Assembly (NCBI GenBank): GCA_038087875.1 | Contig: CM075988.1 | Coordinates: 7,504,001-7,568,000 of the forward strand | Origin: Malacoraja senta | Lineage: Eukaryota | Reading direction: 5' to 3' | DNA length: 64,000 nucleotides | Part shown: piece by piece, positions 7,153 to 63,084 of the stretch | Position numbering within the stretch: the stretch's first letter is position 1 | Layout: every line of letters begins with the position of its first letter | The notes under the pieces: generated by a model | What the model saw: only the letters and a program-made list of their open reading frames with translations | Databases searched by the model: none | Told to the model about the DNA's origin: nothing | Position numbers and translations under genes: made by a program

Positions 7153-7272
7153 TCTGAAGAGTCTGAAGAAGGGTCTCGACCCGAAACGTCACCCATTCCT
7201 TCTCTCCAGAGATGCTGCCTGTCCCGCTGAGTTACTCCAGCATGTTGTGTCTATCTTCCTTTCTGTTACATC
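7153..7272 (+). mobile_element. Penelope terminal-repeat unit with minimal hammerhead-like core
   Basis: CTGAAGA(7163)-A-GGGTC.TC.GACCC-GAAA-C-GTC(7190). Same repeat as the 3' end of the Penelope element at 29021-29153. Confidence 0.8.
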
Positions 7273-7599
7273 TTTTCTGATCTGATGGAGTGAGAGACAT
7301 TACTCTTTTGCAGGATTTCTTCTGGAATTTTGAGGAGGGAGCTTGCTGATGCCACCTGGGAGTGTGGTGATTGGGATCCCAGTTTGGTTCGACAACTTGA
7401 AGGGTATTTTGGCAGAGAAATGAGCAGCACTGGCTATGACTGGAGGAATAAAATTGTCTTAACCTTTAAGTAATGCTGAAAGCTCACACTAAATCATTAT
7501 TAAAAGTCAGTTCTTTCGGGAGTGAACAAACGGCCGTTGTTATTGGGACCAATGTGGTGCAAAATGCTGCCAGAAATGAATTTGGGGCATTACAGGGTT

Positions 7600-8015
7600 A
7601 TTTCATAAGGTCATAAGTGATAGGCGTATCAAGTTTACTTCGCCATTCAATCAAGGCTGATCTCTCTCTCCCTCCTAACCCCATTCTCCTGCCTTCTCCC
7701 CATAACCTCTGACACCCGTACTAATCAAGAAACTATCTATCTCTGCCTTAAATATATCCACTGACTTTGCCTCCACTACTTTCTGTGGCAATGAATTCCA
7801 CAGATTCACCATCCTCTGACTAAAAAAAATCCTCCTCATCTCCTTCCTAAAATAATGCCCTTCAATTCTGAGGCTGTGACCTCAAGTCCGAGACTCTCCC
7901 CACGAGTGAAAACATCCTCTCCACATCCAGTCCATCCAAGCTTTTCACCATTCTATACGTTCCACCTCATTCTTCTAAATTCCAGCAAATATAGGCCCAG
8001 TGCCGTCCAATGCCG
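7600..8015 (-). mobile_element. CR1 LINE 3' fragment
   Basis: Reverse complement of the CR1 ORF2 end and 3'UTR seen at 36500-36920. Confidence 0.85.
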
Positions 8016-9039
8016 TTATTTATGTCACTTGAGTGATCTGGAAGCCAGAAACCAAAAGAAACGTGCTTGGACTCATTGATTCCTTGAACTGCGAAGTCCA
8101 GAATATTTATACAGAGAGTCCAGTTCAAATCCTGCCGCAAAGTGGAATTTGAAATGAAAATATTACTGATTTTTTCAAAATTTAATTTAATGGTAACCAT
8201 GAACATATTGCATTTTGTTTTGTAAAAGCCTGCCTGGTTCAGTAATGTGCTTTGGCGAAGGACGTCTGGTATCTTTACCTAACCTGGCATCTGCGTGACT
8301 CCAGATACACAGATGCATTTAATGCAGAGTTGCGGCCTGAAATGGCTGCACAGATGGGGGCAGTGCAGAGGCTGTCAGTTATGAATGGATAATAAACATT
8401 GCCCTTGCCAGTCCTGCCCACATCCCATGAAAACAGTCAATGTAAATAAAATGCCAAATTCTTTAAAAAATATTTAAAAGCAAAAAAGTGTTATGAACGA
8501 GGGTCTGAGCTATAGGGTAGGCTGGGACTATTCCTTGGAGCGCAGGAGGATGAGCGGTGATCTTATAGAGGTGTATAAAATTATGAGAAGAATAGCTCGG
8601 GTAGATCCACAGTCTCTTGCCCAAGTAGGTAAATCATGAACCAGATGACTTAGATTTAATGTGAAGGGGAAATGATTTAATAGGAATCTAAGGGGTCATG
8701 TTTTCAGAGGGATATTGGCCAAGCGCTGGTAGATGGGACTAGTATAGCTGGGACATGTTGAAGGGTGTGGGCAAGTTGGGCCGAACTGCCTGTTTCCACA
8801 CTGTATGACTCTGACTCACAAACTCAGTAAGCCATTCAAGAGAGAAGTTGGGAAATACTCCTTTCAAAGCCTGGTAGAAGTGTTTGAGTTTGCACACCAA
8901 CACTAGATTATCGGAATCTTAATTTGCCATTCGAGAGGATAAGAGGATTCCGAGCCAGTGTTGTTATTGGATTGAGCGCTCGTTCTGCCTGCCTTGCGCT
9001 GCCTTTAAGGATTTAAACTGATGTCTTAGAGAATGACAT

Positions 9040-9200
9040 TTTCTAATGAAACTGAAACCTAGTGACCTGGCATGTCTTTTTGAAATGTCAAATCTCTATC
9101 TCTCTGTTCAGGTAAAACTAATGACCCTCGTGGCATGATAGGAGGGGGACCAGTGAGTTCTCCTTGTGTGCCAGGACACTTTACAACTGTAACTGATCGA
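9040..9200 (+). mobile_element. Degenerate DeuSINE-like relic
   Basis: TTCAGGTAAAACTAATGACCCTCGTGGCA..GAGTTCTCC..GTGTGCCAGG resembles the Deu-domain core as recalled; not aligned to a consensus. Confidence 0.4.
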
Positions 9201-10448
9201 ATATTGAGAAAAGAGGCAAGTTCTCAATTTGGATTTTGGCTGCTTTCTTGGTGGCATTCATAGAGAGTGTGGCGTTTGACTTCATTCTGTCCCTTCAGAG
9301 TAGGTTGACTCAATTTTCCAACTTTGTAACATGGTCTCCAATTTAGTTTATTTATTGTCACATGTACCGAGGTACAGTCATGGGGAATAGGAGTAGAATT
9401 AGGCTATTTGGCCCATCAAGTCTACTCCACCATTCATTCATGGCTGATCTATCTCTCTCTCCTAACCTCATTCTCCTGCCTTCTCTACATAGCCTCTGAC
9501 ACCTGCACTAATCAAAATTTTATCTATCTCTGCCTTAAAAATATCCATTGACTTGGCCTCTACAGCCTTCTGTGGCTGTAGCAGTGAAAATCATTTTTGT
9601 GGCATGCTATCCAGAAAGACTATACATGATTACCGTCAAGCCATGCACAGTTTACAGATACAGGATAAAAGGAATAATGTTCCGTGCACGATAAATTCCA
9701 ATAAAGTCCGATTAAATAATAGTCCGAGGGTCTCCAATGAGGTAGATGGTAGCTCAGGACTGCACTCCTCTGGTGAAACGTACTGGACAAATGGAGTCAT
9801 CTTATTTTCCAAAGCTATCCATCCAGTCATGGTTCAATGTGTATATTAGTCACCCCTTCAGCTCACCGAGTGAGGCAACTCCCAGGAGACAAAATGCCCA
9901 CCACTGCTTATTGCATTGACTCTGCCACCTAGATTGGATCACAAATGTATGTCGGGAATCCTGGGGATGAAACCGACTCGGTAACCGTCAATAAAAATCC
10001 ACTTATTAGTCAATAAAAAAGCTTAAAAGAGACAGAAAGTGCTCTCTATGCTTCCCAACAGTGGTCCCTCATTAGAACGAGAAAACGTTTAACTATTGAC
10101 AAAAGGAGGGATGAACGAAAGGAACAATAATGATCTGTGATAGGATTGACTGCAAGAAGAAAATAAAAAGGATGGTATTGCATCGCCAAAGGAGCCATTA
10201 ATGGAACAAGAAGCGGATGCATCTGGAGAAGTGTCAGCAAGAGTAGCAGATTCATAATGTGAGCCTAGAGTCAGAGGTGAGGTTGTGTTTCTCAAGCTTG
10301 GGTTTCCCAGGAGAAGTGTAGCAAGTGTAGGAAACAGTGCCCTAACAGGGGAATAGGGAACGGCTGGACAATTAATGACAAGTGACTGGAAGGTTAAAGG
10401 CAGAATCACATTGGGGCTGAATGGAGGTGTTCTGCAAAGCTGTCGCCC

Positions 10449-10580
10449 AGTCTGAAGAAGGGTCTCGACCCGTAACGTCACCCGTTCCTTCTCTCCAGAG
10501 GTATTGCCTGTCCCGCTGAGTTACTCCCATATTTGGGTCTATCTTTGGTTTAAACCAGCATCTGCAGTTCCATCCTACAT
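10449..10580 (+). mobile_element. Penelope hammerhead unit with TSD
   Basis: GCCCAGTCTG duplicated at 10445-10454 and 10581-10590. The core GAAA is mutated to GTAA. Confidence 0.8.
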
Positions 10581-13981: not shown

Positions 13982-14895
13982 CAGTGGCTTGCAAAAGTAT
14001 TCATACCCCTTGAACTTTTCCACATTTTGTCACGTTACAACCACAAACGTAAATGTATTTTATTGGGATTTTATGTGAATAAAATCCAGTGCAACCAATT
14101 GCCTTCAGAAGTCACCTAATTAGTAAATAGAGTCCACTTGTGTGTAATCTAATCTCAGTATGAATACAGCTGTTCTGTGAAGGCTTGTTAGAGAACATTA
14201 GTGAACAAACAGCATCATGAAGCCCAAGGAACACACCAGACAGGTCAGGCATAAAGTTGTGGAGAAGTTTAAAGCAGGGTTAGGTTATAAAAAAAATCCC
14301 AAGCTTTGAACATCTCACGGAGCACTGTTCAATCCATCATCCGAAAATGGAAAGAGTATGGCACAACTGCAAACCTACCAAGACATGGCCGTCCACCTAA
14401 ACTGACAGGCCGGGCAAGGAGAGCATTGATCAGAGAAGCAGCCAAGAGGCCCATGGTAACTCTGGAGGAGCTGCAGAGATCCACAGCTCAGGTGGGAGAA
14501 TCTGTCCACAGGACAACTATTAGTCGTGCACTCCACAAATCGGGCCTTGAGCTTGAGCTATTTTGCAAAGAAGAATGGGCAAAAATGTCAGTCTCTAGAT
14601 GTGCAAAGCTGGTAGAGACATACCCCAAAAGACTTGCAGCTGTAATTGCAGCGAAAGGTGGTTCTACAAAGTATTGACTCAGGGGGGCTGAATACTTTTG
14701 CACGCGATACTTTTCAGTTTTTTATTTGTAAAAAAATTTGAAAACCATATATCATTTTCCTTCCACTTCACAATTATGCACCACTTTGTGTTGGTCTATC
14801 ACATAAAATCCCAATAAAATACATTTATGTTTGTGGTTGAAATGTGACAAAATGTGGAAAGGTTCAAGGGGTATGAAAACGTTTGCAAGCCACTG
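13982..14895 (+). mobile_element. Tc1-family DNA transposon, internally deleted, nested in a Rex1-type 3'UTR
   Basis: ~95-bp TIRs CAGTGGCTTGCAAA.../...TTTGCAAGCCACTG. TA TSD at 13980-13981 and 14896-14897. Confidence 0.95.
14217..14677 (+). pseudogene. Tc1 transposase: paired-like DNA-binding region fused in frame to the C-terminus, DDE domain deleted
   Basis: MKPKEHTRQVR..GYKK (frameshift in A-run ~14290) ISRSTVQSII..GRPPKL..LHKSGL | ELELFCKEEW..KGGSTKY*. Junction at ~14548/14549. Confidence 0.9.
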
Positions 14896-15362: not shown

Positions 15363-15702
15363 GATCTTCAGTATGGACAGGGGGCTGATCTTCAGTATGG
15401 ACAGGGGGCTGATCTTCAGTATGGACAGGGGGCTGATCTTCAGTATGGACAGGGGGCTGATCTTCAGTATGGACAGGGGGCTGATCTTCAGTATGGACAG
15501 GGGGCTGATCTTCAGTATGGACAGGGGGCTGATCTTCAGTATGGACAGGGGGCTGATCTTCAGTATGGACAGGGGGCTGATCTTCAGTATGGACAGGGGG
15601 CTGATCTTCAGTATGGACAGGGGGCTGATCTTCAGTATGGACAGGGGGCTGATCTTCAGTATGGACAGGGGGCTGATCTTCAGTATGGACAGGGGGCTGA
15701 TC
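15363..15702. repeat. Perfect 24-bp minisatellite, 14 copies
   Basis: (GATCTTCAGTATGGACAGGGGGCT)x14 plus GATC; no variant units seen. Confidence 0.98.
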
Positions 15703-17196
15703 GAATTCAGTTTGAAAGAAAAGAATAGCACAAAACTGGAAGGTTCCAAGCAGATATAATGCTGCATTGTACAAACCTTGGGCTTGAAAGTCTAGTTAAG
15801 CTTCAACATTGCTTTAGTCTGAAACAATTTGAATCTTTGGCAGTACATTTATTGATTGATTGAAAGATTGACTGAAAAATACAGCATGGAAACATGGAAA
15901 CATTCACCCCACCGAGACCACACCGATCATTGATCACCCATTCACACCAGTTGTATGTTATCCCAGTTTCTCAACCACTCCTTACACACTAGGGGCAATT
16001 TACAGAGGCCCTAAACCTAGAACCCCCCACGTCTTTGGGATGGGGCACCTGGATGAAAACCCAGTGAGAAGAGCCAAATGCCATTGGTAAAGATTGGGTG
16101 AGCAATAATTTCCACATGTTCCTCTACTGTATGATTTAAAGTCAAATTTATCCCTGGTTTTCCGATCAAGAAAGCTGATTTCAGCAAGGTTTGGATGGAT
16201 AGCGGCATCATTGGGACTATGACTTTACGTATGCAAGTATCCTGGAGTAAAGTAACTTGGCAGGTCAGGCAGCATCTCTGGAGAACGTGGATAGGTGTTG
16301 TTTTGGGTCTGAAGAAGAGTCCCAACTGAAAGCATCATCTATCTGTGTTTTCTGGAGATTCTGGAGATACTACAGCACTTTTTTTTGTAAACCAGCAACT
16401 ATAGTTCCTACTGTCCCCATTTTTTTTGTTTAGTCAGTGGTACAATGTAGGAATGCAGCAATCAATGTGTGTAAAGCAAGCTATCGACACAAGTTAGTAG
16501 CACAATCCAGGTTGATGTTATAATCTGTTTGGAAATGTTTCTGAAACATTTTGCCTTGCATTGGTTTCTCAGGCCAAGGTTGTTCAGTTGCTCTCGGGTT
16601 ACTAATGGACTCAGAATTTATTTATATCATGTGCAAAAATGTAATTGCAGATTGTAAAGTCATATTTGACATTGGTTTATTGTGGGTCATATTTGATCAC
16701 TTAATCTGCTGTGTCTATTGATTGAAAGCAACTCAGTCAATGAGAAGTCTTTCAGTATTTGCCTGCTTCATTTGTGCTATTTATTATAATTTGATTCTGC
16801 GATGATGTACAAGTGTATATGACATCTCCTTGCTCCTTCAGTTTACTGTGTTACAGCTCCTCGTGGTAAATCCTAAACTCATCTATATTTCCAGCATGTA
16901 TTTGGGGGTATATTTGTGTAGGTGCTCTAATTGAAATGTTTGTGACATTTTTAATAAGCTATTATCTCTGGGGAAGAGGTAAATGGTTTATTCCAAACAG
17001 GAACTAGCCTTCTCAGAGTTAAAATTTGCAGTTGACCTGGTCTCAACAACATTATTGGTTTGAGTGTTCCCGATCTTCATTAACCTGTACAGTTCTTCTG
17101 ACCTCTCTCTCTCTCACTCTCTCACTCTCTCTCCCTCCTCCCCTCCCCATAGTGGCTTAACTCCCATGGAAGAAAATCTTTATCCTTTCTACAATG

Positions 17197-17345: not shown

Positions 17346-17349
17346 ATGG

Positions 17350-17620
17350 TCCCACAATTGTCCATTGTTGGCTGTGGAAGAGGTGACAATGAAGGGATAT
17401 ATGGATGCAAACAGTGGAACTGGCAGGAAGCTAGGGTGGGGGAGGGGTGGAGAGAGAGGGAATGCAGGGGTTACTTGAAATTGGAGAAATCAACAGTCAT
17501 ATCATTGGGTTGTAAACTGCCCAGGTAAAATTTGAGGTGCTGTTCCTCCAATTTGCGTGTGGCCTCACTCTGACGGTGGAGGAGGCCCAGGACAGAAAGG
17601 TCAGTTTGACAACTGGGAGA
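17350..17620 (-). mobile_element. Penelope GIY-YIG C-terminal fragment
   Basis: LSVLGLLHRQSEATRKLEEQHLKFYLGSLQPNDMTVDFSNFK* is homologous to the end of the ORF at 28306-28926. Confidence 0.85.
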
Positions 17621-19419
17621 TCGTGTCCCTGAGCAGGTTACTTGCTTGTATTGAATTATAACCATGCAGGTGTGAATTGTGGCCAAGGCTTTGATTGTCA
17701 ATTCTTGGCTCAGAGACTGTTGTTGATTTTTGCCAAGCAAGTTTCACAAGAGGAAACACAAAGTGCTGGAGTAACTCAGTGGGTCGGGCAGTATTTCTGG
17801 AGAACATGGATAGGTGAAGTTCCTGGTCGGGGCTTGTGAGGCATCAAATCTCGTTGGCAATTGCTTTACAATGCTATTGGGAGTGCCCTACAGAGATTTC
17901 CTTTCAACTTTTAAAATGTTACTTCTAACCGCACACTCGTGTGTCTTTTATCAACTGGGATTTCCCCTTCTGCCCTTTATCAGGTCATTAATCGCACAGT
18001 TTGTGGCAGATTGATGCATTACCAAGAGTGGAGTTTATCATACTATTCTGACATTGCTTTAAAGCAAGTGTCACAGACTTGCACCATCTGCCTTTTCAAT
18101 GTTTGATCTCCAGTTCTATATGTCGTACTATTTATATGACAATTTGCTGCACTGGTTAGCGTTCTGGGGTTTATTTTTCATTCACTTAAGAGCATTTTCT
18201 TTTCCTCTTCCTCGCTATACTTTTATTCCATTATTTGTGGTTCTCTGAGTGCTGACATTCTCACAGGCATCTCCCTGCCTCTCTTCATACACTTGTCTTA
18301 ATCCAGAAACAGATTGAATGACCACTTTTTCTTTTGCGTGTGACTTGCTGTTGTATAATCTGCATGGTTGCCATCTCGATACGATGTTTTAGGGGCTTGG
18401 ATGAAGGCACCTAAGAATACAAGAACGTAAGAAGTAGGAGCAGGAATAGCCCCTGTAGGCATTCAAGTCCGCTGTGCCGCTCATTATGATCATGGCTGAT
18501 CATCTAATGAGATGACGGTTCGCGGGCTGAACCAGTCGTGGGCGACGGAGGGGATTGGGAGCAACTCCAGTAGAACGAACATGCGGGAATCCGGACTTTG
18601 AACTCGATAAAATATCGCCACATATGACCGCGCCGGCATTATTATATGCAAAATGAATTTCACTGTTTAATGTTTAATTGCATATGTGACAATAAATATC
18701 CATTGAACCAATGAACCATTTTCCTGTAAAACACCAGAATCTCTCGATTCCCTTAATTACTAGAAATCTACAAAGCTCAGCTTGAGTAGACCCAATGCCT
18801 GGGACTCCACAGCCCTCCAGAATGGAAAATTACAAAGCTTCTAACATGCTCCTTATCCCAATTTTGAAAGAATATAAATTAAGTCAACTCTGTTTCTGAT
18901 CCTTACTCCTCTATAGTGCAGAAATCTGTCAATGTATGTTGGCCACAGTTCTGTGAGTTTTATAAGCGTTTGTACTGGGGGTTTTGGGGTTTTGGGGTTT
19001 TGGGGTTTCTTACCAACAATGCAAGTTTGCCAGACCCAATCGAACTTGAACCCATTCAGAAATAAAATCCTAATGCCTGCCCCAGCTGTGTTTTACACAC
19101 TCTCATTTCAAGTCAAGTAGAGTTTCTTTTTGTAACATTTACAAGTGTGGTGAAGTACAATGAAAATCTTGCTCGTGCCAGGATTGCGGGCACATGGATT
19201 CCGACGATACACATAAACATACATCATATATAAATTATTCATTGAATTACATGGGACCTGTTCTGTTGAGTTATAAATTTTATAAGGCAGTGGAAAGAAA
19301 AAAATAAGACTGTGCTGAAAGGAACTAGATGTCAATGGGAAACACAATTAGAAAATAAGTCCATGGCAGTTCAAGAACCTGACTTGTATTGCCTCCTTGA
19401 TTAACAACACTTTGAGTTT

Positions 19420-19954: not shown

Positions 19955-21699
19955 GTAAGTAATTGTTATTTCAAGATGAGTTCAGAAATTTTGAAAGCTA
20001 TTGACCAGATGCAGAATTGTAACGATTATTGTTTATGCAGTAGGGTTGACGATTTTGTTTTCACTTGTACCTTGATCTTCAGTCACTCTTTAGCTGTTGG
20101 TTGCTTGGCATTGTCCATCATCGCAGTGCATTGCCATCCAATTTTCTTTCCTCCCTTCTTCAATGCTTTTATCATTAAGGAGTGATATTGTGCAATAAAA
20201 ATAATAAAGCACACGTTTTAAAAGAAAATATTCTATGATTATAGTTCTAAGTTGATCATCTTTAATTCTTAGAGACTTCAGGAGAGTCGCAGAGAGTTTG
20301 CATTCTTAGATGGAGTGGAACGCAGTTGATGTTGACAATGACAAAACCCGGTTGATGGTACCTGGAAGCAAAAAAAAGACCAAAACACATATTTTGATTT
20401 GGAAGTTCTCAACTGCTGTAGTTTTTAAATCAAGTTTTTTAATCGGTACCAGAGGCTGAGGGGAGGCCTAATGGAAGCAGATATAATTATGAGAGCATCG
20501 GCAGGGTAGACGGTCAGAATCTTTTTTCCCCAGGGTGAAAATGTCAAAGACTAACCGGCAGAGCTTTATGGTGAGAGGGGCAAAGTTTAAAGGAGATGTG
20601 TGGGGCTAATTTTCTTTACACAGAGAGTGGTGGGGCGCCTGGAACGCGCTGCCAGGAGTGGTGGGGTTGGCATATATAATAGTGGCGTATAAGAGGCTTT
20701 TAGTTAGACACATAGGTATGGAGGGATATGAATGACTACAGGCAACGAAATTTCGTTCAGACCGAAAGGTCTGAATGACAAATAAAGGAATCTCTATCTC
20801 TATCTCGAATCCATGTTTAGGCAGGTTAGATTTTTAACTTGGCGGTCTTCTGCCCACTCACTGGTAAAGCAGATCTCTTGCTGTGCTGTGGGCAGCTGGT
20901 ATCTCGTGGGTGGGCAGGTTCCAGAAAAACAGCGATCCAGTGAGATTCTTTGAGGGTAGCTGCAGTTGCGAAACTAATCCTAAGAAAATAAAGGGCCTCT
21001 GATTCTGGGATGTGGGCGGGCTGGTGGTACAGCTTGAGAAACCTGTTATCTCTTGATGAAACTGCGATGAATGCAAAAGAGCTTCATTGCCTGCCTGATG
21101 ACTTAACCAAAAAGTGGTGTTATATTTGTTGGGTTTACTGATCGGGATGCATGGCGCACGCAAGCCATTTATTTTGAATGGGGCAATGTAGAGTTGGTAC
21201 CTTTGCCCCCTTCCCTAACGTCAACAGGCTTGTTCATGACACTCCTCGTTCACACTAAGTTGAGATGGACAGGATTGCAATAAAGACTGATGCATACACT
21301 GAAGCTGAAAAGAGGGTCTTATTGACGAAAATGTTGGGTTCACTCTTTGCCTATTATTACCACTGAGCAATTCTGTTTTTGTTTTTTGGATTATATTTTG
21401 CATTAAACCATGTTTATGGTAGTAAATCTAAAAGCAGTGTACACAGAATGATATGTTTGATATACACTCTCGTTTTAAAGGCCTTGACCATGGATCAGGG
21501 AATAGTGCAAACAGAAACAAGCTCTATGATGCACAAAATCTGTGCCAGCCACGATGCAATTAAACTAATCCTAGAGATACAAAGACTGTCCTGTTGCAGG
21601 GTTTTGACCCAAAATGTCAACCACGCCCTTCTCCCAACAAAAATTGCTCAACTTCCGCCAGCAAATAGTTTGTTGCTTAAACGTTGTCCATATCCTTCC

Positions 21700-23507: not shown

Positions 23508-25625
23508 TTAGTGCGATATTATGGCAAAATAATCCACTAAAGGTCAACCAAAGAAACGTAAATATAAATGATATATTTGGGCTGAATGAAAATTGTTCTT
23601 ACTGAAATATTGAAAAAGGTCTGTATTATTGAAACTATAAACTATTGAAAATGGCAGAGTAAAATATCAGATCAAAATATTACTTTCAAAATATAACAAA
23701 TGGGTTCAATGAATGTGTAGCATAGTTTAAATAGCCCTGATCCTGGTGTTTTGTAATTAAAAACATTGCTTGTTGGAGCTGTGTCACGGATCACTTCTAC
23801 ATGGTGAGCTATGTATCCACAGCACTAAGGTGCAATCTTCAAGTCACTAACGTAACAGAGAATTTTGGACAGTTGGTCTGACATACAAGTTTGAGGCAGA
23901 GCATATAGCGTTTGGACGTTGAAGTTCAAGTATTTAAATAAATCTGGAATCAAAACAAAAGGTTGGTCCCAGTCAAAGTTGCTATGAAACTACAGATAAC
24001 ACTTTCAAGAGTTAATTTAACTTTTCTAGAGAGAGTTAGATTTAGCTCTTAGGCCTAACGGAATCAAGGGATATGGGGAGAAAGCAGGAACGGGGTACTG
24101 ATTTTAGATGATCAGCCATGATCATATTGAATGGTGGTGCTGGCTCGAAGGGCCGAATGGCCTACTCCTGCACCTATTTTCTATATTTCTATGTAACACT
24201 CATTATAATGGACCATAGGGGGAGGGGGGGGGGGGAATTATGTCTGTTATTGCCGATTGACCAGTATAACCAAGTAAGGGGGGGGGGGGGGTAGGGTAAA
24301 TATGTACAGTATTGGAAAAACAGCCAATAAACATAGACAAACCAAGTCACACGATAAAGAGTTAGTTTTTTCACACCATATTCTTCACATACACACTACC
24401 GTAGCACCATTCCCTAACTTGTAGAACTTAGTTCTAATTTCTGGCATACACTTAAACTGACACTTGTTCATTCTACCCACCACTCTCTCTGGAAGCCAAG
24501 GTCAATCACTACAATGATAATTTAAAGCAGAAAAGTGAGTAAATACAAAACGGGGTGAACACACAACACGTGCGGCCACGATGACGCAGCGGTAAAGTTA
24601 CTGTCTTTCAGCACTTGCAGTGCCGGAGACCCGGGTTCGATCCCAACTACCGGTGCTGTCTGTATGGAGTTTGTACATTCTCAATATACACAAATTGTAT
24701 ATGGCAGTTACAATAGGTTTTACTGAAAAGGCAGAATGCTTCCTGAAAATACTTAGCCCTGATTCCCACAGTGAGACTGAGGGTTGGATTTAAATTCAGT
24801 AGCTTGCACTTGTTTCCCAAGCAACGTCCCACTGGATGCATCTGGTTCTATCCTTGGAAGATTGCTTGGAGCAACTAACAAAGTTTGACATGCCATCCCA
24901 AAAATTACTCATTTATTTTTCCTCTAATTTCTGTTGATTAACCTGTTCCTCAGTCCGGGTATTATTTATCCACAATCCCACGGAACCCTAATCTAGTGTA
25001 ACTGACTCTAGTGTGGGCCCCATATCAAATTCCTTCTGTGACTCTAAATATACCATAACTATCAGCTTCCCTTCGCATGCCTGGCCCGCGGCGTTACTCC
25101 AACATTTTGTGGCCAGCTCCCAAGTTGGATGCAGAATTTACAGAAATATGTTCACGAAAATTATAGGATTTTAAACTATTTTCTTTATCTCCCCACAACA
25201 CGGAAATCTCTAACCGAGATGGGGTGGTGGGTATATGGAATGAGCTGATGTGGAACTTCTGTACGGAGTTTGTACATGTGGGTTTTCTCCGGGTCCTCCA
25301 GTTTCCTCCCACACTCCAAAGGTGTACAGGTTTTTAGGTTAATTGGCTTCTGTAAATGATATATTGTCCCTAGTGTGTAGGATAGTGTTAGTGTACGGGA
25401 TGATCGCTGGTTGGCACGGACTTGGTGGGCCAAACGGCCTGTTTCCACGCTACATCTCTAAAGTAAACGAAAGAGCTACCAGAGGAAGTATTTGAAGCAA
25501 CTACTATAACAGCATTTAAAAGCATTTAACAGGTACATGGATAAAAATGTTTAGACGGATATAGGCCAAACACGGGCAGGTGGGTCTGGTGTGGATGGGG
25601 CATCATGAAGAAGTTGGGCCGAAGG

Positions 25626-25718
25626 AGTCTGAAGAAGGGTCTCGACCCAAAACTTTGCCTATTTGCTTCGCTCCATAGATGCTGCCTCACCCGCTGAGTT
25701 TCTCCAGCATTGACCTTT
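25626..25718 (+). mobile_element. Penelope hammerhead unit inserted in a CR1 tail, 9-bp TSD
   Basis: GGCCGAAGG at 25617-25625 and 25719-25727. Confidence 0.8.
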
Positions 25719-26989: not shown

Positions 26990-27214
26990 AGGGCCTGTCC
27001 CACTTGGGCGTCATTTGCGCGTCATTTATGCGACATCATTTACGCGTCATGACGCACACATGATGCATGCATGGCATGCATTACGCGCGCATGGTGGGTG
27101 GTGACGTAGGCAGAGATGCGCGGTCGCATGCGGCACCCCAGGATTTTGTGATTCACAAAATCTTCGCTCGCCATCTGCGTGACGCGCAAATGACGCCCAA
27201 GTGAGACAGGCCCA
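26990..27214. mobile_element. PIF/Harbinger-type MITE nested in a Penelope hammerhead unit (26931-27288, minus)
   Basis: TIR AGGGCCTGTCCCACTTGGGCGTCATTTGCGCGTCA. TAA TSD splits the host GCTGGAG-TAA-CTC. Confidence 0.9.
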
Positions 27215-27992
27215 TAACTCTGCGGGTGAGGCAGCATCGATGGAGAGAAGGAATTGGCGACATTTTGGGTCGAGACCCTTCTTCAGACTGTACTGATCTC
27301 CACTGATGATCCAACTCTAATTCCACTGTTGGTTAACCATCCTATGGCTTAATGCCTTAAGGTCACCATTCCGCCACAGCCAAACACTTTGAATAATGTG
27401 ACTGGGGATAAACACATGTTAGTTTTTGTTCTGTTAATTAGCTGTTTAGCTACTTCCAACAAAATAATTCTGGAGACACGACTGGCTATCTTTGCATGGA
27501 TATCAGTCACTTTGCTGTGTTGCTGCTGGAGTGTTTTTTTTAGTCTTCCTGAGTAAACAGATAAACAGAAATTTGCAGTTGAAGTCCAAATAATGCTCAG
27601 AACTGTCCCAAGATAGACTTTCCAGTCCTGGCAATCGATGCAAATCAAAAATATGCAGATGCTGAAACACTGAAGTAAAAAGAGAAAATGCTTGAATAAA
27701 AAGCTAAGGTCTGTGGAAAGAGAATCAAAGTTAATGTTGCAGGTTGAAGAACAACCTTCCCCATATATATTGCGATTAGCTGTGGTTCTGTGTGTGAATG
27801 TTTTTGGTGCTTTGTTGGTCCCACAGTTAAGTCAAGGATAAAAGGAAGATTGTGACACTGCAAGTTACCACTCTTTCCAGATTAAGAAAATGAAGTTTTC
27901 CTCCAACGCCACCTCCAACGTGACCCCACCACTCGCCACATCTTCCCATCTGCCCCCCTGTCTGCCTTCCGCAAAGACTGCTCCCTCCGCAA

Positions 27993-28459
27993 AGGGCCTG
28001 TCCCACGGGCATGCGACTCCATGCGGCAAGCGCGACCTAACCGCAAGCGCGGGCCAAGCGGGGGCCGCGCGGAGGTCGAGTGATCCCCGTACAGGGCAGG
28101 TCCCACCAGCATGTGGCTGCATGCGGCAAGCGCTACCAAATCGGAAGCGGGGGCCGCGCGGAGGTCGAGTGACGTCAAGACGGTGCGTACGGCGGAGAGG
28201 CGGTGCGCACGGCCGTTGAGGCGGTGCGCACAGCCGTCGATGCGGCTCGATGGCCTCGATGCGGCTGCGGGGCGGCAGGCCGTTGCCGCACGGAATTTTT
28301 GAACAGTGTCAGTTTTTCGGAGCCCCGCGCGATGTCGGGACCAGCTCCGCACAACTCCATATGGCTCCGGCGATCGAAGTGGGACCGGCCCCGCGCGGCC
28401 CCCGCTTGCGGTTAGGTCACGCTTGCCGCATGGAGTCGCATGCCCGTGGGACAGGCCCA
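27993..28459. mobile_element. CpG-rich PIF/Harbinger-type MITE nested in Penelope
   Basis: ~65-bp TIRs starting AGGGCCTGTCCCACGGGCATGCGACTCC. TSD CAA/TAA with one mismatch. Confidence 0.9.
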
Positions 28460-28462
28460 TAA

Positions 28463-28926
28463 CTCCCTTGTCAATTCTTCCCTTCACTCCCGCTCCACCC
28501 CCTCCCCGGGCACTTTCCCTTGCAACCGCAAGAGATGCTACACTTGTCGCTTTACCCCCCCCCCTCGACTCCATTCAAGGACCCAAGCAGTCGTTCCAGG
28601 TGCGACAGAGGTTCACCTGCACCTCCTCCAACCTCATCTATTGCATCCGCTGCTCTAGATGTCAGCTGATCTATATCGGTGAGTCCAAGCGGAGGCTTGG
28701 CGATCGTTTCGCCGAACACCTTCGCTCGGTCCGCAATAACCAACCTGACCTCCCGGTGGCTCAGCACTTCAACTCCCCCTCCCATTCCGTATCCGAACTC
28801 TCTGTCCTGGGCCTCCTCCACGGCCAGAGTGAGCAACACCGGAAATTGGAGGAACAGCACCTCATATTCCGCTTGGGTAGTCTGTATCCTGGTGGCATGA
28901 ACATTGAATTCTCACAATTCCGTTAA
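28463..28926 (+). pseudogene. Penelope GIY-YIG endonuclease domain (frameshift in C-run ~28555-28564)
   Basis: NLIYCIRCSRCQLIYIGESKRRLGDRFAEH...VAQHF...EQHLIFRLGSLYPGGMN. Confidence 0.9.
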
Positions 28927-41184: not shown

Positions 41185-41405
41185 AATAGACACAAAATGC
41201 TGGAGTAACACAGCGGGACAGGCAGCATCTCTGGACAGAAGGAATGGGTGACATTTCGGTTCGAGACCCTTCTTCAGACTGGAGAAGAGTCTCGACTCAA
41301 AACGTCACCCTTTCCTTCTCTCCAGAGATGCTGCCTGTCCCGCTGAGTTACTCCAGCATTTTGTGTCTATTTTTGTATTAATCCAGCATCTGCAGTTCTT
41401 TCCTC
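41185..41405. mobile_element. Inverted (fold-back) pair of Penelope hammerhead units
   Basis: ~95-bp arms centred at CTTCAG-A-CTGGAG (~41272-41284). Imperfect flanking duplication CCACT(T)CTCCTT(G/T)CTCCTC. Confidence 0.85.
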
Positions 41406-41508
41406 CACTCTCCTTTCTCCTCATTCTCTTTCTCTTCGTTCGCCAAAAGTGCTGAAGAGAATTGCAGTGCCTAATGGCTGCGATCAATAAACTCTATGCC
41501 AATGAAGG

Positions 41509-42280: not shown

Positions 42281-42281
42281 T

Positions 42282-42299: not shown

Positions 42300-44132
42300 A
42301 TCAAAGGTCCCCCAAACACAAGTTTGCGATCAAGGGTGTTGAGCTGTTTCGATCACGTGCAGAAATCGGGCTAATGGTACGGTTTTCACATTGATTTTCG
42401 GCACTTCGTGAGTCGGAGTGGATCGATCATTCGTGGGCTTGGGAAAGGATCTAATCGAGATCATTAGAACAGAGTCTAGCAAGCACGGAGGAATGGTTAG
42501 CACACCTTTGGGTTGGAGGCTCTTAAAACAAGGCTGGGGTTAGAGGCCCTTTCCTGGGTTAGGGGCCCAAAACTGGTCATAGTTGGGCAGACTGCAGTTG
42601 CCTTTAATGAGAGCTAAACGTGCTTCATTGGGCAAGGAGTAGCCCAGGGTTAGACTTGGTATCCGAATTGGTGAGGTATTAAAAGACAGGTCTCGCCTTT
42701 GATCGGATCGTTGCCGGGAGTGCAAATTGAAAAGGTGCGCTTCGAAAAACAGCATCGATAATTCACAGCGCAAAGCGGCTAGGCGCTGGATCCTCGGTAC
42801 TTAGCAGAAGGGTGTATCTGTGTGTAGGTGTCTGAGCCTCTCCCTGAAGTGACGGACGAAGCGCCTCGAAAAGGTACCGAACTTGGACGAACAGAGTATA
42901 GATTGGCCGGAATACTCCAGTTCGTTCAAGAATTTAATCGGGCCATTTTAGCTAATTCGAGAGCCCGCGTAGTAAGAGAGATACGCACTAAAAATTAGGA
43001 GATCGAGTTCAAGTCTGAGTCTATATTTGCAGCTAAATTTTCAAATACTGGATTTCATATTGAAGTTCTGCGTAAGGTGGGATTCGAATTCCTGTATATA
43101 GAACTTCGAAGTTGGTGCATGTCCGTCATCGATTCCGAATAGCGGCTGATCAACAGTGAATAGTAACCCTCTGGTCGATTGTTGACTCGTACCTGATAGC
43201 GAAGAGTACCTGAGAGACGGGAGCCTCCTTACTTGATGAAAAGTAATCCGAATAGCGAAGTGTACCCCTAATTCTGTCGAACTTAGAGAGGAGGGATAGA
43301 GGTCCCCCTCTAGAAGTCCAGTATTAGCAGAGGGATAGTAACATTCGGGGGGGAAAATAATCATTTAGGGAATAGTACCCCTCAGCAAAGAGTAAACTAG
43401 GAAGGGGAAAATCTTCGGTATCAGAGGGAGTGGTTCACTGCGTGATAACAGCGTGACGCGGCGTCGAGATCGAGTGTCCGTGAATTGTGCGTTAGTGCTT
43501 TAAATCATTTTGTAAATTGTAAAAAATAGCTTTCCGTATTGTTATAGGATCCGGATTTTGTAAATATTCTCTGTATATAAATAAATTTAGAATAATTAAA
43601 AGTTAAGATTTAGATCGTGAATTAAAACTTGAAGAGAGAGTGTGTTTAAGTTAGATATTCGTATTTGTTTAATATCGTTTCGTAAGAATCTGAATCGGGG
43701 TGGTTTGATCAGGGGTTGTACTCCTTCGATCGCTGCGCTGGGGGAGGAGACATCCAATTGATTGATTGCGCCACGAGGAAGATTTCTTAGAGTGCGTGAT
43801 TTATAATAGACGAATGTTTGTGGTTTATTTAGGGGTTTGGTTGTGCCTGATAGTGATAGGTAGCGTATTATCCTGTTTGTGGACTGTGTTACTTGCGTGT
43901 CTGAAAATCATTTTAATATGTTATGATTGAGAACGTTATAAGGTTGAAAGAGCGTGGACTTGTGGGAGATAGGAGAAGAATTTGAATGAGAGAACAGGAC
44001 TGGTGGAGCGAAGGAGTAGCGAGTTGCGAGGTTGCGATCGCGTTGAACCATTAGCCATTGTCTAGGAGCGAGCTTGGTAAATTTAGGGATAAAAGGAAGG
44101 ATTTAAAAATTCAGTGTCAGGTGTTCGGAAGC

Positions 44133-46582
44133 ATGGGGAATAATGTAGATAGAGATGTAACAGAAGAAGTGAAAAGCCCATTACAACTAATGTGTAATGA
44201 GTTTCCTCATAAGGCAGAGAAATTAAGAAATTTATCACGAGCATTAAATAAGAAATTAGGGATTAAGCTATGGCCGCCAGGGGGGAACAGGGACAGTAAA
44301 AGGGATAAAATACATAGAACTAATCAATTGGCAGCATAGTAATAACGAGGGTGCAAAAGAATTAATAGGGTTATGGAGAAAATATTTTGAGGATCGGAAG
44401 ACGAATAAGGAGGTCAAGAGAATGGCTAGTTGGGAAAAAGCGATCGCTAAACTTGGATTAGAACTAAAAGAAGGTGAAGTAGATCGACCACCAGGTAGTA
44501 GTAGGGACAGGAATGGAGATAAAGGGAAACACTCAGAACAAGGGAAAGGTGGATCTCCTGGAAGAAAAGTAGTTCCTGTAAAATTAAAGATGAAGAATCC
44601 GAAGGTTAGTGCTGACTTCGGGGGGGGGAAGAGGATGAGTATTTAGAAGAGTGGACAAATGTTAACGTCAGTGGACGTTCACAGCTCCCACCATGTTCCT
44701 CTTGCGTTTCCCAGGCTTCATTAGCACCGTGTATGACTTGTGTCCATAATAAATATTTTAGGTCTGCAGAATCTATAACAACTCCGGCAGATTCTACATC
44801 TGAACAGGTTTTACCAACAGCAGATACTGAGGTAACAGATCCTTCGATCTTATCCACGCCATCACTGATAGATCGTCCAGTGGCTTATGGCACCCGGAAG
44901 AAAAGGTTAGCTCCCGTGTTTAAAGGTATGTTAGATATAGTGCAACCACCAGAGTATTTCTGTGAGCCACAACCTAGGCAGATCACTCGAGTGGAAAGGA
45001 ATGATTTATTTGGGCAGTATCGGGAATTCCCTAATGAACCGGAAGATTTATCGGAGGGTGAGACAGTAATTCTAGATACCGAAATAGACTTTGACGTAAC
45101 TGAAAGTTTATAAATTGAACAGGTATCCCATAGGCAGTTACCAGTAAGGGAAGGAATAGGAATAACAGATTCGGCCAGCGCAGTGAGATTGAATAATCCC
45201 CGCGTTACAGATGCCCATATGCCATGGAAGCCCCATGAAATAATGGCAGTACTAAACAGAATCCCTGATAGGAAGAAGTCCCCTGCTGCTTTCATAGGGT
45301 ACTTGTGGACCACAATGCGTGTATACCATGCAGATTCACGGGATTTGTGGGAGACCATACAACAGATAATTTCTCCAGCTGAGAATACCAAATTTCTAGT
45401 AGCCCTAGGACACCCGATTTATGAAACATTGGCGGGCGAGGTAATGGACGACAGTGCAAGAGAAGAGGTTGTTTTAACGGCCCTTGCAAAAACGTTTCAG
45501 AAACCAGGCGATTTAAGTCGAGTCCTGGAAATAAAACCAGAGAAGGGGGAAGGAGCAGACGAATTTCTAGACCGCTTTTCAAAATTATATATGGATCAAT
45601 CAGGTGATTTAGACTATCAGAATGGAGTAAGTTCCCCTCAATATTATGCGGTCTTGTTGAATTATCTACCCACTAAAATAGCGGATTTAATTAAAATAAA
45701 TAAAAGGAACTGGTCTGAGAACCGAGCCAGTCAAATAGCCAGAACTGTGAGATATTATTGGAAGGAAGGTAGGAACCAGGAAAATTATTCTGTAACTAGG
45801 AGAGAAAGTGAACGCACAGCGAAGGAGGAATTACCAAAATCTAACTCTGAACCATGGATTCCCAGAGTGCCAACAAATTACGGATTGGGAGATATTAGAG
45901 TCCCAGATTACTCTCACCGTTATACTCCCAATCTCAAGCACATTTCAATGGAACCCAGGGGTAGAATAAGACCAACAATGCTACCTAACCAATGCTATAC
46001 TTGCGGAGGGATGGGACATTGGAGTAGGGCCTGTCCAACGAAGGAACGGATGAAAGAGAGGGGTCAAAGAAGGGGTTTCCAGGATTAAGACGAACTTAGA
46101 GATCCTAGAGAATATAGAGACATCCGACATCCAAGGAATTATGGGAGGTCCTTTAATTCAAGAGACTACTGGGACCCAAGAAACCAGAGAGAGACAGATG
46201 GCCCGAATGTCAGGAACTGAGAAGTCACACACCGTTTACTCAAGCTACCCCATTTTCTCAGTCCTGACTCACCAACCCGTCCTGGAATTGTGGGCGTGGA
46301 GACATGACCCCTACTCTGGATCCCTCTCAAGTAATTTACCAGAATGAGTGGATTGGATATACTATTGTAATAAAAACTGGAAATATTATGGAAGAAAATT
46401 ATAAACCCTCTTCTGATTACCCCAGAAAACCCCTTAGAGCAAAGAAGATTGTAAATCAAGGAGCTTGTTTCAACTGCACCCAATCAGGTCACTGGAGCAA
46501 GGAGTGTCCAGCGAGAAGGCAGAACATAGCTGGATTGAAGAAAAATCAAGAGGCAATAAAGAAAGTAAGAAAAGGAACATAG
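44133..46582 (+). pseudogene. gag: Retroviral Gag (MA - PPxY region - CA - NC), few lesions
   Basis: Kozak AGCATGG with MG start. MA-like WPPGGT. PPEY at 44946-44957. CA start QLPVRE. MHR-like LSRVLEIKPEKGEGADEFLDRF. CCHC knuckles CYTCGGMGHWSRAC and CFNCTQSGHWSKEC. Confidence 0.88.
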
Positions 46583-51146: not shown

Positions 51147-51492
51147 ATATAATTTAAAAAAACACATTATGTCAGTTATCCGCCTCCTAAGGAAATTTAT
51201 TTCCTGATAAGGCACTTGAGCAAAGAATGACACAAAGTGCTGGAGTAACAGTAGCATCACTTAAGCAACCAGAACAACAACAGAAATACACACCTTTGAT
51301 TGCCGCTGGGCTGTGCTAGTTTTACTGCACATGCCAGGGAGGTTATTTGAGATGACAATAACATATCTACACTTACTGGATAACTGAATTAAAAAAATAA
51401 AGAGACACTCAGCTGGTAACGCAGAATCAATGGTCAGAGAAGCAATTCATGGTTTCAGTCTGGGTCTCTCTTCATATAGTTTTTGCGATAAC

Positions 51493-51690
51493 TTGTGTCG
51501 GAAGGAACTGCAAATGCTGGTTTAAACTGAAGATAGACACAAAATGCTGGAGTAACTCAGCGGGAGAGGCAGCTTCTCTGGATCGCTTCAGACCTGAAGA
51601 AGGGTCTTGACCCAAAATGTCACCCATTCCTTCTATCCAGTGATGCTGCCTGTCCCGCTGTGTTACTCCAGCATTTTGTGTCTATCTGTC
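51493..51690. mobile_element. Inverted pair of Penelope hammerhead units
   Basis: Centre CTTCAG-AC-CTGAAG at ~51586-51599. Confidence 0.8.
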
Positions 51691-56795: not shown

Positions 56796-56817
56796 AATTC
56801 AACGTGTGTGTATACTG

Positions 56818-56848
<31 letters not shown>

Positions 56849-57559: not shown

Positions 57560-57958
57560 TTTAGTTTAGTTTAGAGATACAGCCTTTCGACTCCCCTCGA
57601 GCCAACCAGTGATCCCCGTATACCAGCACTATCCTACACACTAGACAATTTTCCTTTTTTTAACCGAAGCCAATTGACCTACAAAGTTGTACGTCTTTAG
57701 AGTGTGGAAGGAAACCGGAGCGCCTGGAGAAAACCCACGTAGGTCATGGGAGAACGTACAAACTCCATACAGACAGCACACGTAGTCAGGGCCGAACCTG
57801 GGTCTCCAGCGCTGTAAGGCAACAACTCTACCACTGCGGAGGTAGACAAAAATGCTGGAGAAACTCAGCGAGTGAGGCAGCATCTATGGAGCGAAGGAAA
57901 TAGGCAACGTTTCGGGTCAAAACCCTTCTTCAGACTCTACCGCTGCGCCACCGTGCTG
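57560..57958 (-). mobile_element. tRNA-derived SINE interrupted by a Penelope hammerhead unit (57839-57933)
   Basis: ACTCTACC(A/G)CTGCG duplicated at 57825-57838 and 57934-57947. Confidence 0.88.
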
Positions 57959-60574: not shown

Positions 60575-60822
60575 AGGGCCTGTCCCACTTGCCGATTTTA
60601 TCGCCCACTGCCGGCGTCATTGACTGACGTATCAGGGCCGCCGAAAGATTTTGAACATTTCAAAATCCAGCGGTGACGAAAAAAAATGTTGCGACACTTG
60701 AGGTAACACTGCGCGTCAATACGACGTCACGCCGGATCACGCCGCGACTTTTATGGTGACCTGATACGTCAGTCAATGATGCCGGCAGTCACCGATAAAA
60801 ACCGCCAAGTAGGACAGGCCCT
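60575..60822. mobile_element. PIF/Harbinger-type MITE
   Basis: TIR AGGGCCTGTCCCACTTG / CAAGTAGGACAGGCCCT with long imperfect arms. TTA TSD at 60572-60574 and 60823-60825. Confidence 0.9.
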
Positions 60823-61891
60823 TTACCTTGGAAAATAAAATCTGAAGATCCCCTAAAAACATCCTATCCATTCCTTCCACAGATGCTGCCTGCCCCGCAG
60901 AGTTACTCCAGCACTTTGTGTTTTGCCTTGCAAAGTAAAGTTGAACTGGAGGCACTTTTCACGATGAAGATTGGGAGCTGTGGGTGGAATGGTGGCAGCA
61001 GTGATGCAGGCATTATAGTTCATGGTTTAGGGAGTGGAACTGCGGTGTTGTGATCATATGTGGCAGAACAACAGCCGTCACACAGCCATTTCCACAGTCA
61101 GATTAAATCCAAGCCGAGGAGGTAATTTCCATCAGATCAGAATTAAATGGTTCTGTGTAAACAGGTCTTTAGAGAGTCTGGGAGCTGTGTTGATTTGATA
61201 ATGATTCTATTAAAACGAGATGCTGTGGGCACTGGCAGTGGCACCTCGCTGCTTTGCTATACGAATGTAAACTTTGAAAGCGTTTGGGTGGCTGCGGGAG
61301 GCAAAGATAATTGGCCGGGCATTTGATTGGGTGATTAGGCCGAGGCTATGATGGTGATTCAATTTGCATTATTTATTCATATAGTGTCAAATCGCTGCTT
61401 TTAGACACGATGCATTTTACATTAGTCGTATAATGAAGTGAAATTAAATGAAATGTATGCTTATATTTGAAATGTGTTAACATTTGAAGCATGAACACTA
61501 TAATTACCAGTGGCATTTGTGTCTTTTGAAAGCACATCTACTAGTAATTCTGGCTTGCAGCCACCCTTCGGGGGGGGGGGGGGGGGGCAATGGGGTGGTT
61601 GGGGGGAGGCAGTATTTGTGGTGTGGATGCGGGGATTGCGGGTGAAAACGATGGCAGTCGTATTTTGTTTGCAAAGTCAAGAATCAGTCTCGTGCTAATC
61701 TCGCGCTATCAATGAGTAGCAGTGTTTTAAACGTCAAACCAGCATCTACGCTTGCATCTAGGCCATTTGATGCCATTTGACATTTGATGCCATGTTCTCG
61801 GCCTTGCCTCTCCAAGGGCAAGGCACTACATTTATATTGTATGTAGGATACACAAAGAACTGCAGATGCTGGAAACTTACGTCAAACACTT

Positions 61892-62180
61892 GGGCGGTGG
61901 TGCAGTGGTAGAGTTGCTGCCTTACAGCGGGTTCGATCCTGACTATGGGTGCTGTCTGTATGGAGTTTATACGTTCTCTGAGTGACCTCGTTGGTTTTCT
62001 CCGGGAGCTCCGGTTTCCGTCCACGCTCCTAAGACGTACAAGTTTGAGGCTAATTGGGCTGGTAAAATGGTAAATTGTCCCTAGTGTGCATGGTGTTAGT
62101 GTGTGGGGATCACTGATTGGTGCGGACTTGGTTGGTCGAAAGGCCCGATTCCTCACTGTATCTCTAAACTAAACTAAATT
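61892..62180 (+). mobile_element. tRNA-derived SINE
   Basis: GGTTCGATCC B-box and consensus tail. Confidence 0.85.
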
Positions 62181-62803
62181 AAATGAAACAAAGTGCAGGA
62201 GTAACTCAGCGGGTCAGGCAGCATCTCTGGAGGACATGGATAGGAGACGTTTCGGGTGAGACCCTTCAGTCTCCTAACGTTTTGATTAGCCCGTTCAAAT
62301 GGGCGTTAAAGATCCTCACGAGTTTGGGGGACGAAAATAAATACCAGCATTCAGAAAACATTTAACTTAACACAGTCGTTCCAAAGTCCAGAAAGCAGCC
62401 GTATCTCCCTCTGCAACTTGCTGCATTCCAGCAATTTACTGTGTGAATTTCTCCGACCATGTGGCAATTCTTATGTAAACAAAAGTTATTCCTTTCTGAC
62501 TTCAAGCCGTCCACGCTGCTTGCTTCTGGCCGGCTGGAGAATGATAATACATTCTGCTTTGTACGTGGGTGTCTTTACAAACGGGCTAAGTTTACCTTTG
62601 ACTCAGGGAGCGCAGTGATGAAGCGGCGAACTATTGGCAGATCACCCACCTGAACCGTGTGCGACCTGCAGGGTAAATGTGTGGCAGCTCACCCAGCTCT
62701 CTGTCTTGTTCACCATTTCACAGCTGCATGTCTGCAGATGCAGCATGGAAACAGGCCCTTCGGCCTACCGAGTCTAAGCCGACCCTCGTTCACACTAGTT
62801 CTA

Positions 62804-63084
62804 CAGACACAAAATGCTGGAGTAACTCAGTGGGCCAGGCAGCATCACTGGAGAAAAGGAATGGGTGACGTTTTGGGTCGGAACCTTTCTTCAGACTGAG
62901 ATAGAAAAGGCCAGAATACGGAGGTTACACATAAATTTTGGCCTTCTCTATCTTTCAGCCTGAAGAAGTGATCCAACCTGAAACGTCACCTAATCCTTTT
63001 CTCCAGAGATGCTGCCTGACCTGCTGAGTTACTCCAGCATTTTGTGTCTATCTTCAGTATAAACTAGCATCTGCAGTTCCATCT
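62804..63084. mobile_element. Fold-back Penelope hammerhead pair inserted in a SINE (62715-63318, minus), 15-bp TSD
   Basis: TTCACACTAGTTCTA at 62789-62803 and 63085-63099. Confidence 0.88.

Follow-up and report, generated by a model that had tools for sequence, protein, structure and literature searches.

The window analysed here, a 64,000-nucleotide stretch of the genome of the skate Malacoraja senta (assembly GCA_038087875.1, contig CM075988.1, positions 7,504,001 to 7,568,000, forward strand), is crowded with short repeats that carry a minimal type I hammerhead ribozyme motif. We show that these units are the 3′ end, i.e. the pseudo-long terminal repeat (pseudo-LTR) plus an optional tail of ~30 nucleotides (nt), of a Neptune-type Penelope-like element (PLE) with its closest relatives in skates, and that each results from a separate insertion, which often comprised a head-to-head pair. 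In our interpretation, the units are probably minimal insertion products of a Neptune-clade PLE. All coordinates and copy counts below refer to this one window.

A profile built from six window copies gave 30 matches at E ≤ 0.01, which correspond to 29 units (five of them weak) because one unit is split by a miniature inverted-repeat transposable element (MITE); the same profile gave no match when run on 10 simulated 64-kb sequences matched in dinucleotide composition. To avoid recovering copies through their core, a second profile was made from the sequence behind the ribozyme only, and this gave 28 matches, i.e. 27 units. A preliminary description of this DNA had proposed about 20 units, or one per ~3 kb. 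The high copy number is real and the true density is higher, 27–29 units or about one per 2.3 kb, because eight loci are head-to-head pairs, which fold into long hairpins and had mostly been counted once. Five cores had been named as intact and were all recovered where they had been placed, with the one at 29822 starting at 29795 once H17 is included; four are fully intact (7163, 29024, 41026 and 57933), while that at 29822 has an A–C mismatch in stem II. The 14 further positions listed for copies all overlap profile matches. Our own hammerhead descriptor found five motifs in the window vs 0.15 per simulated window, and an Rfam scan of the window detected no hammerhead family at E ≤ 1 (nine matches, all under the gathering score); its MIR2118 and mir-628 rows were discarded because they match, by chance, two of the inverted pairs (41.2 and 62.9 kb). 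DNA pattern scans of metagenome, viral and genome contigs gave no matches, and no relative turned up when viral contigs were scanned at the protein level. The short units show several sequence subfamilies.

The Penelope origin of the units, proposed earlier, is borne out by a copy that continues upstream into an open reading frame (ORF). In this element (27897–29152), which is interrupted by a MITE and flanked by a 14-nt target-site duplication (TSD; 27883–27896 and 29151–29164), the unit forms the end, and the hammerhead lies 97 nt behind the stop codon, the place of a pseudo-LTR. The last 121 codons give a weak Pfam GIY-YIG match (E 6e-4, below the cut-off) and match 25 longer proteins among 157 candidates (E 1e-52 to 1e-33); all named matches are from sharks, rays and skates, the best being those of Leucoraja erinacea and Rhinoraja longicauda. 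Homologs at 56–62% identity combine a reverse transcriptase (RT) domain, RVT_1, with GIY-YIG, and among four that were scanned RVT_1 was present in two and GIY-YIG in all four. A CxxxxCxxC motif at about 28520–28546 is near-invariant in the homologs; in the linker that joins RT to endonuclease (EN), this motif marks the Neptune and Nematis clades (PMC8557442). The element is thus a putative Neptune-type PLE: the linker motif was the sole basis for assigning its clade, and what the window retains of the protein is the RT–EN connector and EN. Only two ORF-bearing pieces lie in the window (27897–29152 and 17474–17605), and the 3′ untranslated region (UTR) of the long copy has no second match there.

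Side observations were made on these sequences. The MITE inside the ORF, which we take to be PIF/Harbinger-like, and the one at 26990–27213 have a common terminal motif and TAA-like flanks, and both lie within Penelope sequence; at 28094 the former also seems to contain, nested within it, a copy of its own end. Among the elasmobranch proteins, P0001, P0002, P0008, P0010 and P0018 have host-like N-terminal parts or names joined to the GIY-YIG domain. In P0002 (skate) and P0018 (shark) the joined part is a receptor-transporting-protein-like domain, which may reflect an old exonisation rather than an annotation error. The read-through C-terminus of P0009 (zebra shark) resembles a translation of the unit start (a likeness at the protein level), which suggests that sharks may have the same motif at the same place.

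The motif itself is identical, as proposed earlier, to the published minimal type I hammerhead, with a palindromic ACGU helix III and a predicted cut after 7190. All 11 core positions (CUGANGA/GAAA/UH) are present in 8 of the 19 gap-free copies, four of which also keep stem II and the ACGU palindrome, and the core nucleotide is the majority state at every position. G10.1 is found in 17/19 copies, C11.1 in 14/19 and the CG of palindromic 15.2–16.2 in 12/19, the rest being mostly CpG decay. The extra A after CUGANGA, which had been given as a ground for doubting activity, is instead a hallmark of the minimal-hammerhead family, as it is present in all 19 gap-free window copies and in 21/21 related metagenome motifs. 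The weak 2-bp stem I noted earlier was confirmed; 16 of the 21 related motifs have 3 bp or more, and in the family present in the window the third pair of stem I does not form. By contrast, the 2-nt loop drawn for stem II cannot be folded, and stem II has 4 bp and a 4-nt loop.

These relatives come from 80 metagenome loci with related endonucleases (41–55% identity), 61 of which have at least 250 nt downstream. The same architecture lies behind the ORF in 21/61 loci, 100–306 nt behind the matched domain, compared to 0/61 on the reverse strand and 0/1220 shuffles. In an alignment of 15 chosen rows (six from the window and nine of the 21 metagenome loci), 89% of the cells are paired vs 5–51% in slid controls, five of the six pairs are changed on both sides, and 0/500 shuffles reach the score. 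Stems I and II covary across families; because the descriptor required stem II but not stem I, the stem I signal is the less circular part of this evidence. Within the window, the loop of stem II does vary as described, yet the changes in loop and stem are mostly C/T transitions and not compensatory.

The flanks of the units carry the standard footprints of Penelope insertion, namely TSDs, inverted pairs and one-sided tails. Flanking duplications exceed the 95th null percentile at 8/19 loci and the 99th at five; at three duplication-flanked loci a whole head-to-head pair is enclosed, and so a pair is one insertion event. The 3′ ends are bimodal, ~30 nt apart, at model positions 56–67 (10 matches) and 83–92 (11 matches), with the other seven elsewhere, and a tail is present on one arm only in 5/8 pairs (tail counts are from the downstream-only profile). 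The pair axis lies on a palindrome at the 5′ edge in 3/8 pairs. Inverted 5′ partners, one-sided tails and junction palindromes are described PLE features (PMC8557442, PMC3846280), and in an element of the anole a pair of internal RT start sites flanks the tail (PMC11167929). As separate observations on single pairs, the duplication around that at 30182–30413 (30133–30168 / 30433–30468) is unusually long, and the pair at 62803–63088 has ~20 nt of extra inverted non-element sequence on both arms around a 17-nt loop (62899–62955), possibly a captured flank or a longer fold-back.

The 5′ edge of the units is sharp. Of 21 units reaching C3, 20 share 0–6 nt upstream of it with the long copy and then run into unrelated DNA, and upstream flanks are alike only where they are inverted arms. 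No core-bearing unit in the window begins at the cleavage site (nucleotide 1.1); an apparent start of this kind at 60862 turned out to be a decayed full core. The edge overlaps a TCAG-N-CTGA palindrome, an initiator-like TCAGTC and a CAG that, preceded by a pyrimidine tract, resembles a splice acceptor, and copy 25626 starts at the A of TCAGTC, right after its target duplication and without microhomology.

The edge is also visible in RNA from a relative. From a poly(A) run, about 6% of which was read (7.3 million records), 10,251 reads were placed on 28461–29200 at a likeness of at least 82%. Across the edge their depth goes up from 168 to 1,975 to 3,934, and DNA contigs step up there too; 3′ UTRs that differ between subfamilies account for part of the step. 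Compared with the ORF, the unit has a 6.2-fold greater depth. In these reads, loose 3′ ends whose flanks differ occur at 29108–29118 and 29147 and match the two 3′ end classes. The first-mate strand ratio is 1.07 on the unit vs 1.72 on the ORF (28736–28885), the direction of the latter bias depending on the library protocol. The balance on the unit suggests passenger transcription in host RNAs of both orientations. RNA ends at the GUH site, proposed earlier as a sign of cleavage, were looked for in this library, which misses rare cleavage, and no pile-up of read starts or ends passed the tool threshold, the cut site after 29051 included.

The dispersed copies are decaying. G12, the catalytic nucleotide, is lost in 7/19 gap-free cores, mostly by CpG decay: the C11.1–G12 CpG is CG in eight, CA in six, TG in four and GA in one, and over 26 aligned units it is CA in nine, CG in eight, TG in five and otherwise in four. 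The CA state removes G12 while the TG state keeps a wobble pair, and the lethal CA change is not avoided (6/10, p=0.75). For non-CpG differences, the greater conservation of core over flank that had been expected depends on the rows used. With all 19 copies, 10/190 core cells differ vs 49/688 downstream (columns without subfamily variants; p=0.42). When copy 62269 is dropped, because the alignment forces its core deletion into mismatches, the numbers are 6/180 vs 58/701 (p=0.023). Against all downstream non-CpG columns, p≤0.0024. Seven units with gapped or missing cores were excluded from this test, and this exclusion favours the core. Subfamily variants are found in 0/10 core columns and 12/50 downstream columns. 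The conservation of the core fits selection in transposing master elements and decay once inserted, together with the exclusion of gapped cores, and could include selection on copies.

By analogy with the anole PLE, we suggest that the RT/GIY-YIG protein would nick the target and start reverse transcription inside the RNA at two sites ~30 nt apart, and that these two start sites would give the units with and without tail. The RT would copy back through the uncleaved hammerhead and nearly always stop 0–6 nt past C3, where the product would either be joined to the target, often by microhomology, or fold back or switch template to give a head-to-head pair. Fold-back at the TCAG-N-CTGA palindrome could well cause the stop; it is somewhat less plausible that the template RNA begins at TCAGTC, and other causes seem unlikely. 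Selection would have kept the hammerhead in the transposing master elements; its cleavage in these may be weak and occur as a dimer or with help from the PLE protein. In dispersed copies, it would be a passenger undergoing neutral decay and transcribed on both strands within host RNAs.

Several points weigh against this interpretation. Random 5′ truncation would not give so sharp an edge and an extra step is needed, the two candidate causes of which, fold-back and RNA start, are both inferred; most related metagenome motifs lack the palindrome, and 5/8 pair junctions are not centred on it. The non-CpG core is conserved as well as or better than downstream positions. In addition, the descriptor that picked the covariation rows required stem II, and these rows stand for about four lineages only; the RNA was sequenced from a relative, with a library insensitive to ends made by cleavage; the evidence comes from one window; and the longest copy is 5′-truncated.

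The sharp edge is also what would be expected if the units were mini-elements resembling short interspersed elements (SINEs), in which a 100–140-nt unit with its own internal RNA polymerase (Pol) II promoter and RT start site is mobilised by the Neptune protein in trans. We consider this unlikely, although not negligibly so. It would account for the common edge of 20/21 units, for copy 25626 with its start exactly at the initiator-like A and no microhomology, for the excess of short units over ORF-bearing pieces (27–29 to 2 in the window and ~6-fold in RNA depth), and for the several sequence subfamilies. Moreover, PLE pseudo-LTRs with internal promoters and initiator-like motifs have been described (PMC3846280, PMC2377424). 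On the other hand, the relative's RNA has no strand bias or read-start pile-up at the edge (host read-through would mask them), inspection by eye revealed neither Pol III boxes nor a poly(A) tail, and, as there are two or more ORF-bearing subfamilies, a long parent may exist for each short one. The initiator match itself extends over six letters only. The SINE-like label of the preliminary description, if taken to mean a non-autonomous family that propagates itself, is unproven; the footprints are those of ordinary Penelope insertion and most copies lack some core nucleotides.

It is very improbable that the host maintains dispersed copies as active ribozymes which cleave introns or UTRs in the form of cis or trans dimers, even though 4/19 cores are fully intact, the non-CpG core is somewhat better conserved in two of three row sets, and transcription is abundant. 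The loss of G12 in 7/19 copies, the 2-bp stem I and the missing end pile-up at the cut site argue against it, and published minimal hammerhead ribozymes (min-HHRs) cleave poorly in vitro (PMC4209133). In the four intact copies, the double-hammerhead fold (−6 to −7 kcal/mol) also lies far above the best dimer fold (−19 to −28 kcal/mol; gap 12–22), but these energies are uninformative because the gaps are similar in related motifs; tertiary contacts are also left out of the model.

We give still less credence to a 5′ edge formed by a 3′ splice site (pyrimidine tract and CAG at 29020–29022), with short units copied from spliced RNA: 30 of the 32 upstream nt in the long copy are pyrimidines and the Drosophila virilis Penelope intron ends at helix I (PMC4209133), but the short units have no common upstream exon, related metagenome motifs mostly lack AG at this place, PLEs reportedly retain introns on transposition (PMC2377424), and none of the 15 joints shown (246 more were not shown) matches this intron or has RNA support. 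An origin as non-LTR retrozymes, in which tandem repeats are cut to monomers by the hammerhead, circularised and reinserted, is just as improbable. Both systems are small non-coding hammerhead repeats related to PLE pseudo-LTRs (PMC7229834, 10.64898/2026.07.22.740005), and retrozymes, for which derivation from these has been proposed, exist as dispersed monomers too and are known from the only chondrichthyan that was sampled (10.64898/2026.07.22.740005). However, retrozymes form tandem arrays of direct neighbours and use a canonical type I motif (PMC7229834) with a 6-bp helix I and loop 1–loop 2 contacts. The window contradicts this: no tandem array of the unit is among its 21 Tandem Repeats Finder rows, the nearest same-strand cores are at least 251 nt apart with unrelated DNA between them, neighbouring units are inverted so that the motif is buried in a long hairpin, units are not permuted at the cut site, and the motif is minimal, with a 2-bp stem I and no Rfam hammerhead match. 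The retrozyme-like character suggested earlier is thus not upheld.

Table 1 Units, parts of the ORF-bearing element and related features in the window
Position	Strand	Feature
7158–7258	+	Solo unit without tail; core 7163–7190 fully intact
10448–10580	+	Solo unit with tail; A13 changed; 10-nt TSD overlaps 5′ edge
16236–16420		Old head-to-head pair, decayed cores; tail absent from minus arm but present on plus arm (C3 16309)
17474–17605	−	Second ORF-end fragment, other subfamily (66% protein identity); different 3′ UTR cut off before any hammerhead
17749–17830	−	Unit without 5′ half of core
21595–21666	+	Weak decayed candidate unit (E 2e-4; missed by downstream-only profile)
25078–25143	+	3′ part of unit only, no core
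25626–25711	+	Solo unit, G12 lost; inside SINE 3′ end; 12-nt TSD; start exactly 3 nt before C3
26922–27290	−	Unit with tail, G12 lost; split by 224-bp MITE (26990–27213)
27897–29152	+	5′-truncated Neptune-type PLE (ORF C-terminus, 3′ UTR, hammerhead, tail)
27897–27992	+	ORF piece before MITE, RT–EN connector; 22/28 residues identical to whale shark RT+GIY-YIG protein
27993–28460		MITE with 70-bp terminal inverted repeats, inserted in ORF; flanks CAA/TAA
28461–28926	+	End of ORF, comprising Cys-rich linker (CxxxxCxxC, as in Neptune/Nematis) and GIY-YIG endonuclease; frameshift near 28558
28927–29019	+	Pyrimidine-rich 3′ UTR, in no short unit of the window
29022–29053	+	Intact minimal type I hammerhead with C3 at 29024 and H17 at 29051; A9 followed by the extra A; stem II of 4 bp, stem I of 2 bp; palindromic ACGU
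29119–29152	+	Optional ~30-nt 3′ tail
29692–29851		Minus unit with tail, core 29795–29822 (one stem II mismatch), and short inverted plus arm 29827–29851
30182–30413		Head-to-head pair, tail on minus arm only; flanking duplication of at least 36 nt
37426–37489	−	Short unit, G12 lost
38265–38490		Old head-to-head pair; tail-like sequence on both arms
40233–40386		Old head-to-head pair, no clear tail
40915–41030	−	Solo unit with tail; core 40999–41026 fully intact
41182–41408		Head-to-head pair, axis on CAG-N-CTG palindrome at hammerhead 5′ edge; tail on plus arm only; ~20-nt TSD
51217–51474	−	Two weak decayed fragments (51217–51249, 51402–51474), each seen by one profile only
51496–51689		Head-to-head pair, tail on minus arm only; junction on 5′-edge palindrome
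57836–57937	−	Solo unit without tail; core 57906–57933 fully intact; in SINE head; 14-nt TSD
60838–60930	+	Decayed unit, stem II partly deleted; 17-nt duplication
61850–61876	−	Tail-only fragment (16-nt exact match)
62186–62270	−	Unit with 3-nt core deletion
62803–63088		Head-to-head pair, tail on plus arm only; 18-nt TSD

The window contains other repeats. A SINE-like repeat of ~300 bp, presumably the HE1 SINE of sharks and rays, lies at 29241–29545 and about 20 other places (over 20 matches), and units 25626 and 57836 are inserted in copies of it. Broken gag-like frames of an LTR element or endogenous retrovirus (44055–46582, plus strand) contain one zinc knuckle (Pfam zf-CCHC, E 1e-6) and, at 46268–46582, another motif resembling a knuckle; downstream of them, no pol-like frame of at least 70 amino acids was recognised by eye. 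RT fragments (Pfam RVT_1) of three different LINE-type (long interspersed element) sequences lie at 2623–4909 (+), 5657–6829 (−) and 35661–36827 (+), a Tc1/mariner-type transposase fragment (HTH_Tnp_Tc3_2) at 14291–14677 (+), and a perfect 24-bp minisatellite (14.2 copies, 100% matches), open in several frames, at 15363–15702.

The motif belongs to a known class. The published min-HHRs and the window motif have in common the type I core, the unpaired nucleotide between 9 and 10.1, G10.1–C11.1, the palindromic 15.2–16.2 without loop 3 and the pseudo-LTR place (PMC4209133). Stem I has 2 bp here and in D. virilis and 4–5 bp in Schistosoma, and stem II here has 4 bp. Min-HHRs are mostly dispersed singles from truncated elements, with some opposite-strand pairs, and have been reported in Xena, Poseidon and Neptune elements of fishes; 4,000 motifs were counted in coelacanth and 9,000 in Xenopus (PMC4209133), and the density in the window, if typical, is far higher. 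In its available portions, this source does not name cartilaginous fishes or describe a common 5′ edge, although its figures may list elasmobranch motifs, and two of its supplement files contain no shark or skate terms. Likewise, the literature searched (mostly open listings, with subscription journals and Repbase/Dfam outside) gave no report of a common 5′ edge at the motif or of skate minimal hammerheads. With Neptune PLEs, the window shares the C-terminal GIY-YIG, the Cys-rich linker, heavy 5′ truncation, the inverted 5′ partner, a 30–40-nt one-end tail, junction palindromes and TSDs (PMC8557442, PMC3846280), but the products here are nearly all of one minimal size class. Poseidon of Anolis carolinensis likewise has two 3′ end classes a tail apart, with the hammerhead ~100–130 nt before, and insertions from uncleaved RNA, and, as here, no RNA-seq ends at the cut site (PMC11167929). 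It is of a different clade, and protein-assisted cleavage has been demonstrated in the anole (PMC11167929). Among Xenopus dimers, one of nine is reported to have cleaved (10.64898/2026.07.22.740005).

We conclude that the findings add a skate lineage to a known class of minimal hammerhead, at a density that is perhaps a record. No new catalysis is shown, and the use of the finding is mechanistic: the termination of PLE reverse transcription, the origin of head-to-head pairs and the purpose of the hammerhead are open questions (PMC11167929, PMC8557442, PMC3846280). A large natural set of minimal products with exact edges, tails and duplications would allow junctions to be counted in one genome. 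There is a small chance that the hammerhead 5′ edge is the working boundary of Penelope replication, at which reverse transcription begun in the tail would end, either through a start of the RNA at this point or through a snap-back of the cDNA. The 100–140-nt unit would then be a self-contained, PLE-mobilised mini-element (promoter, ribozyme and RT start site) and a strong-stop-like product accounting for most insertions. Were the window representative of a genome that we assume to be 2–3 Gb in size, the skate would carry in the order of 1 million units and 100,000 intact minimal hammerheads, together with many long hairpins in its pre-mRNAs.

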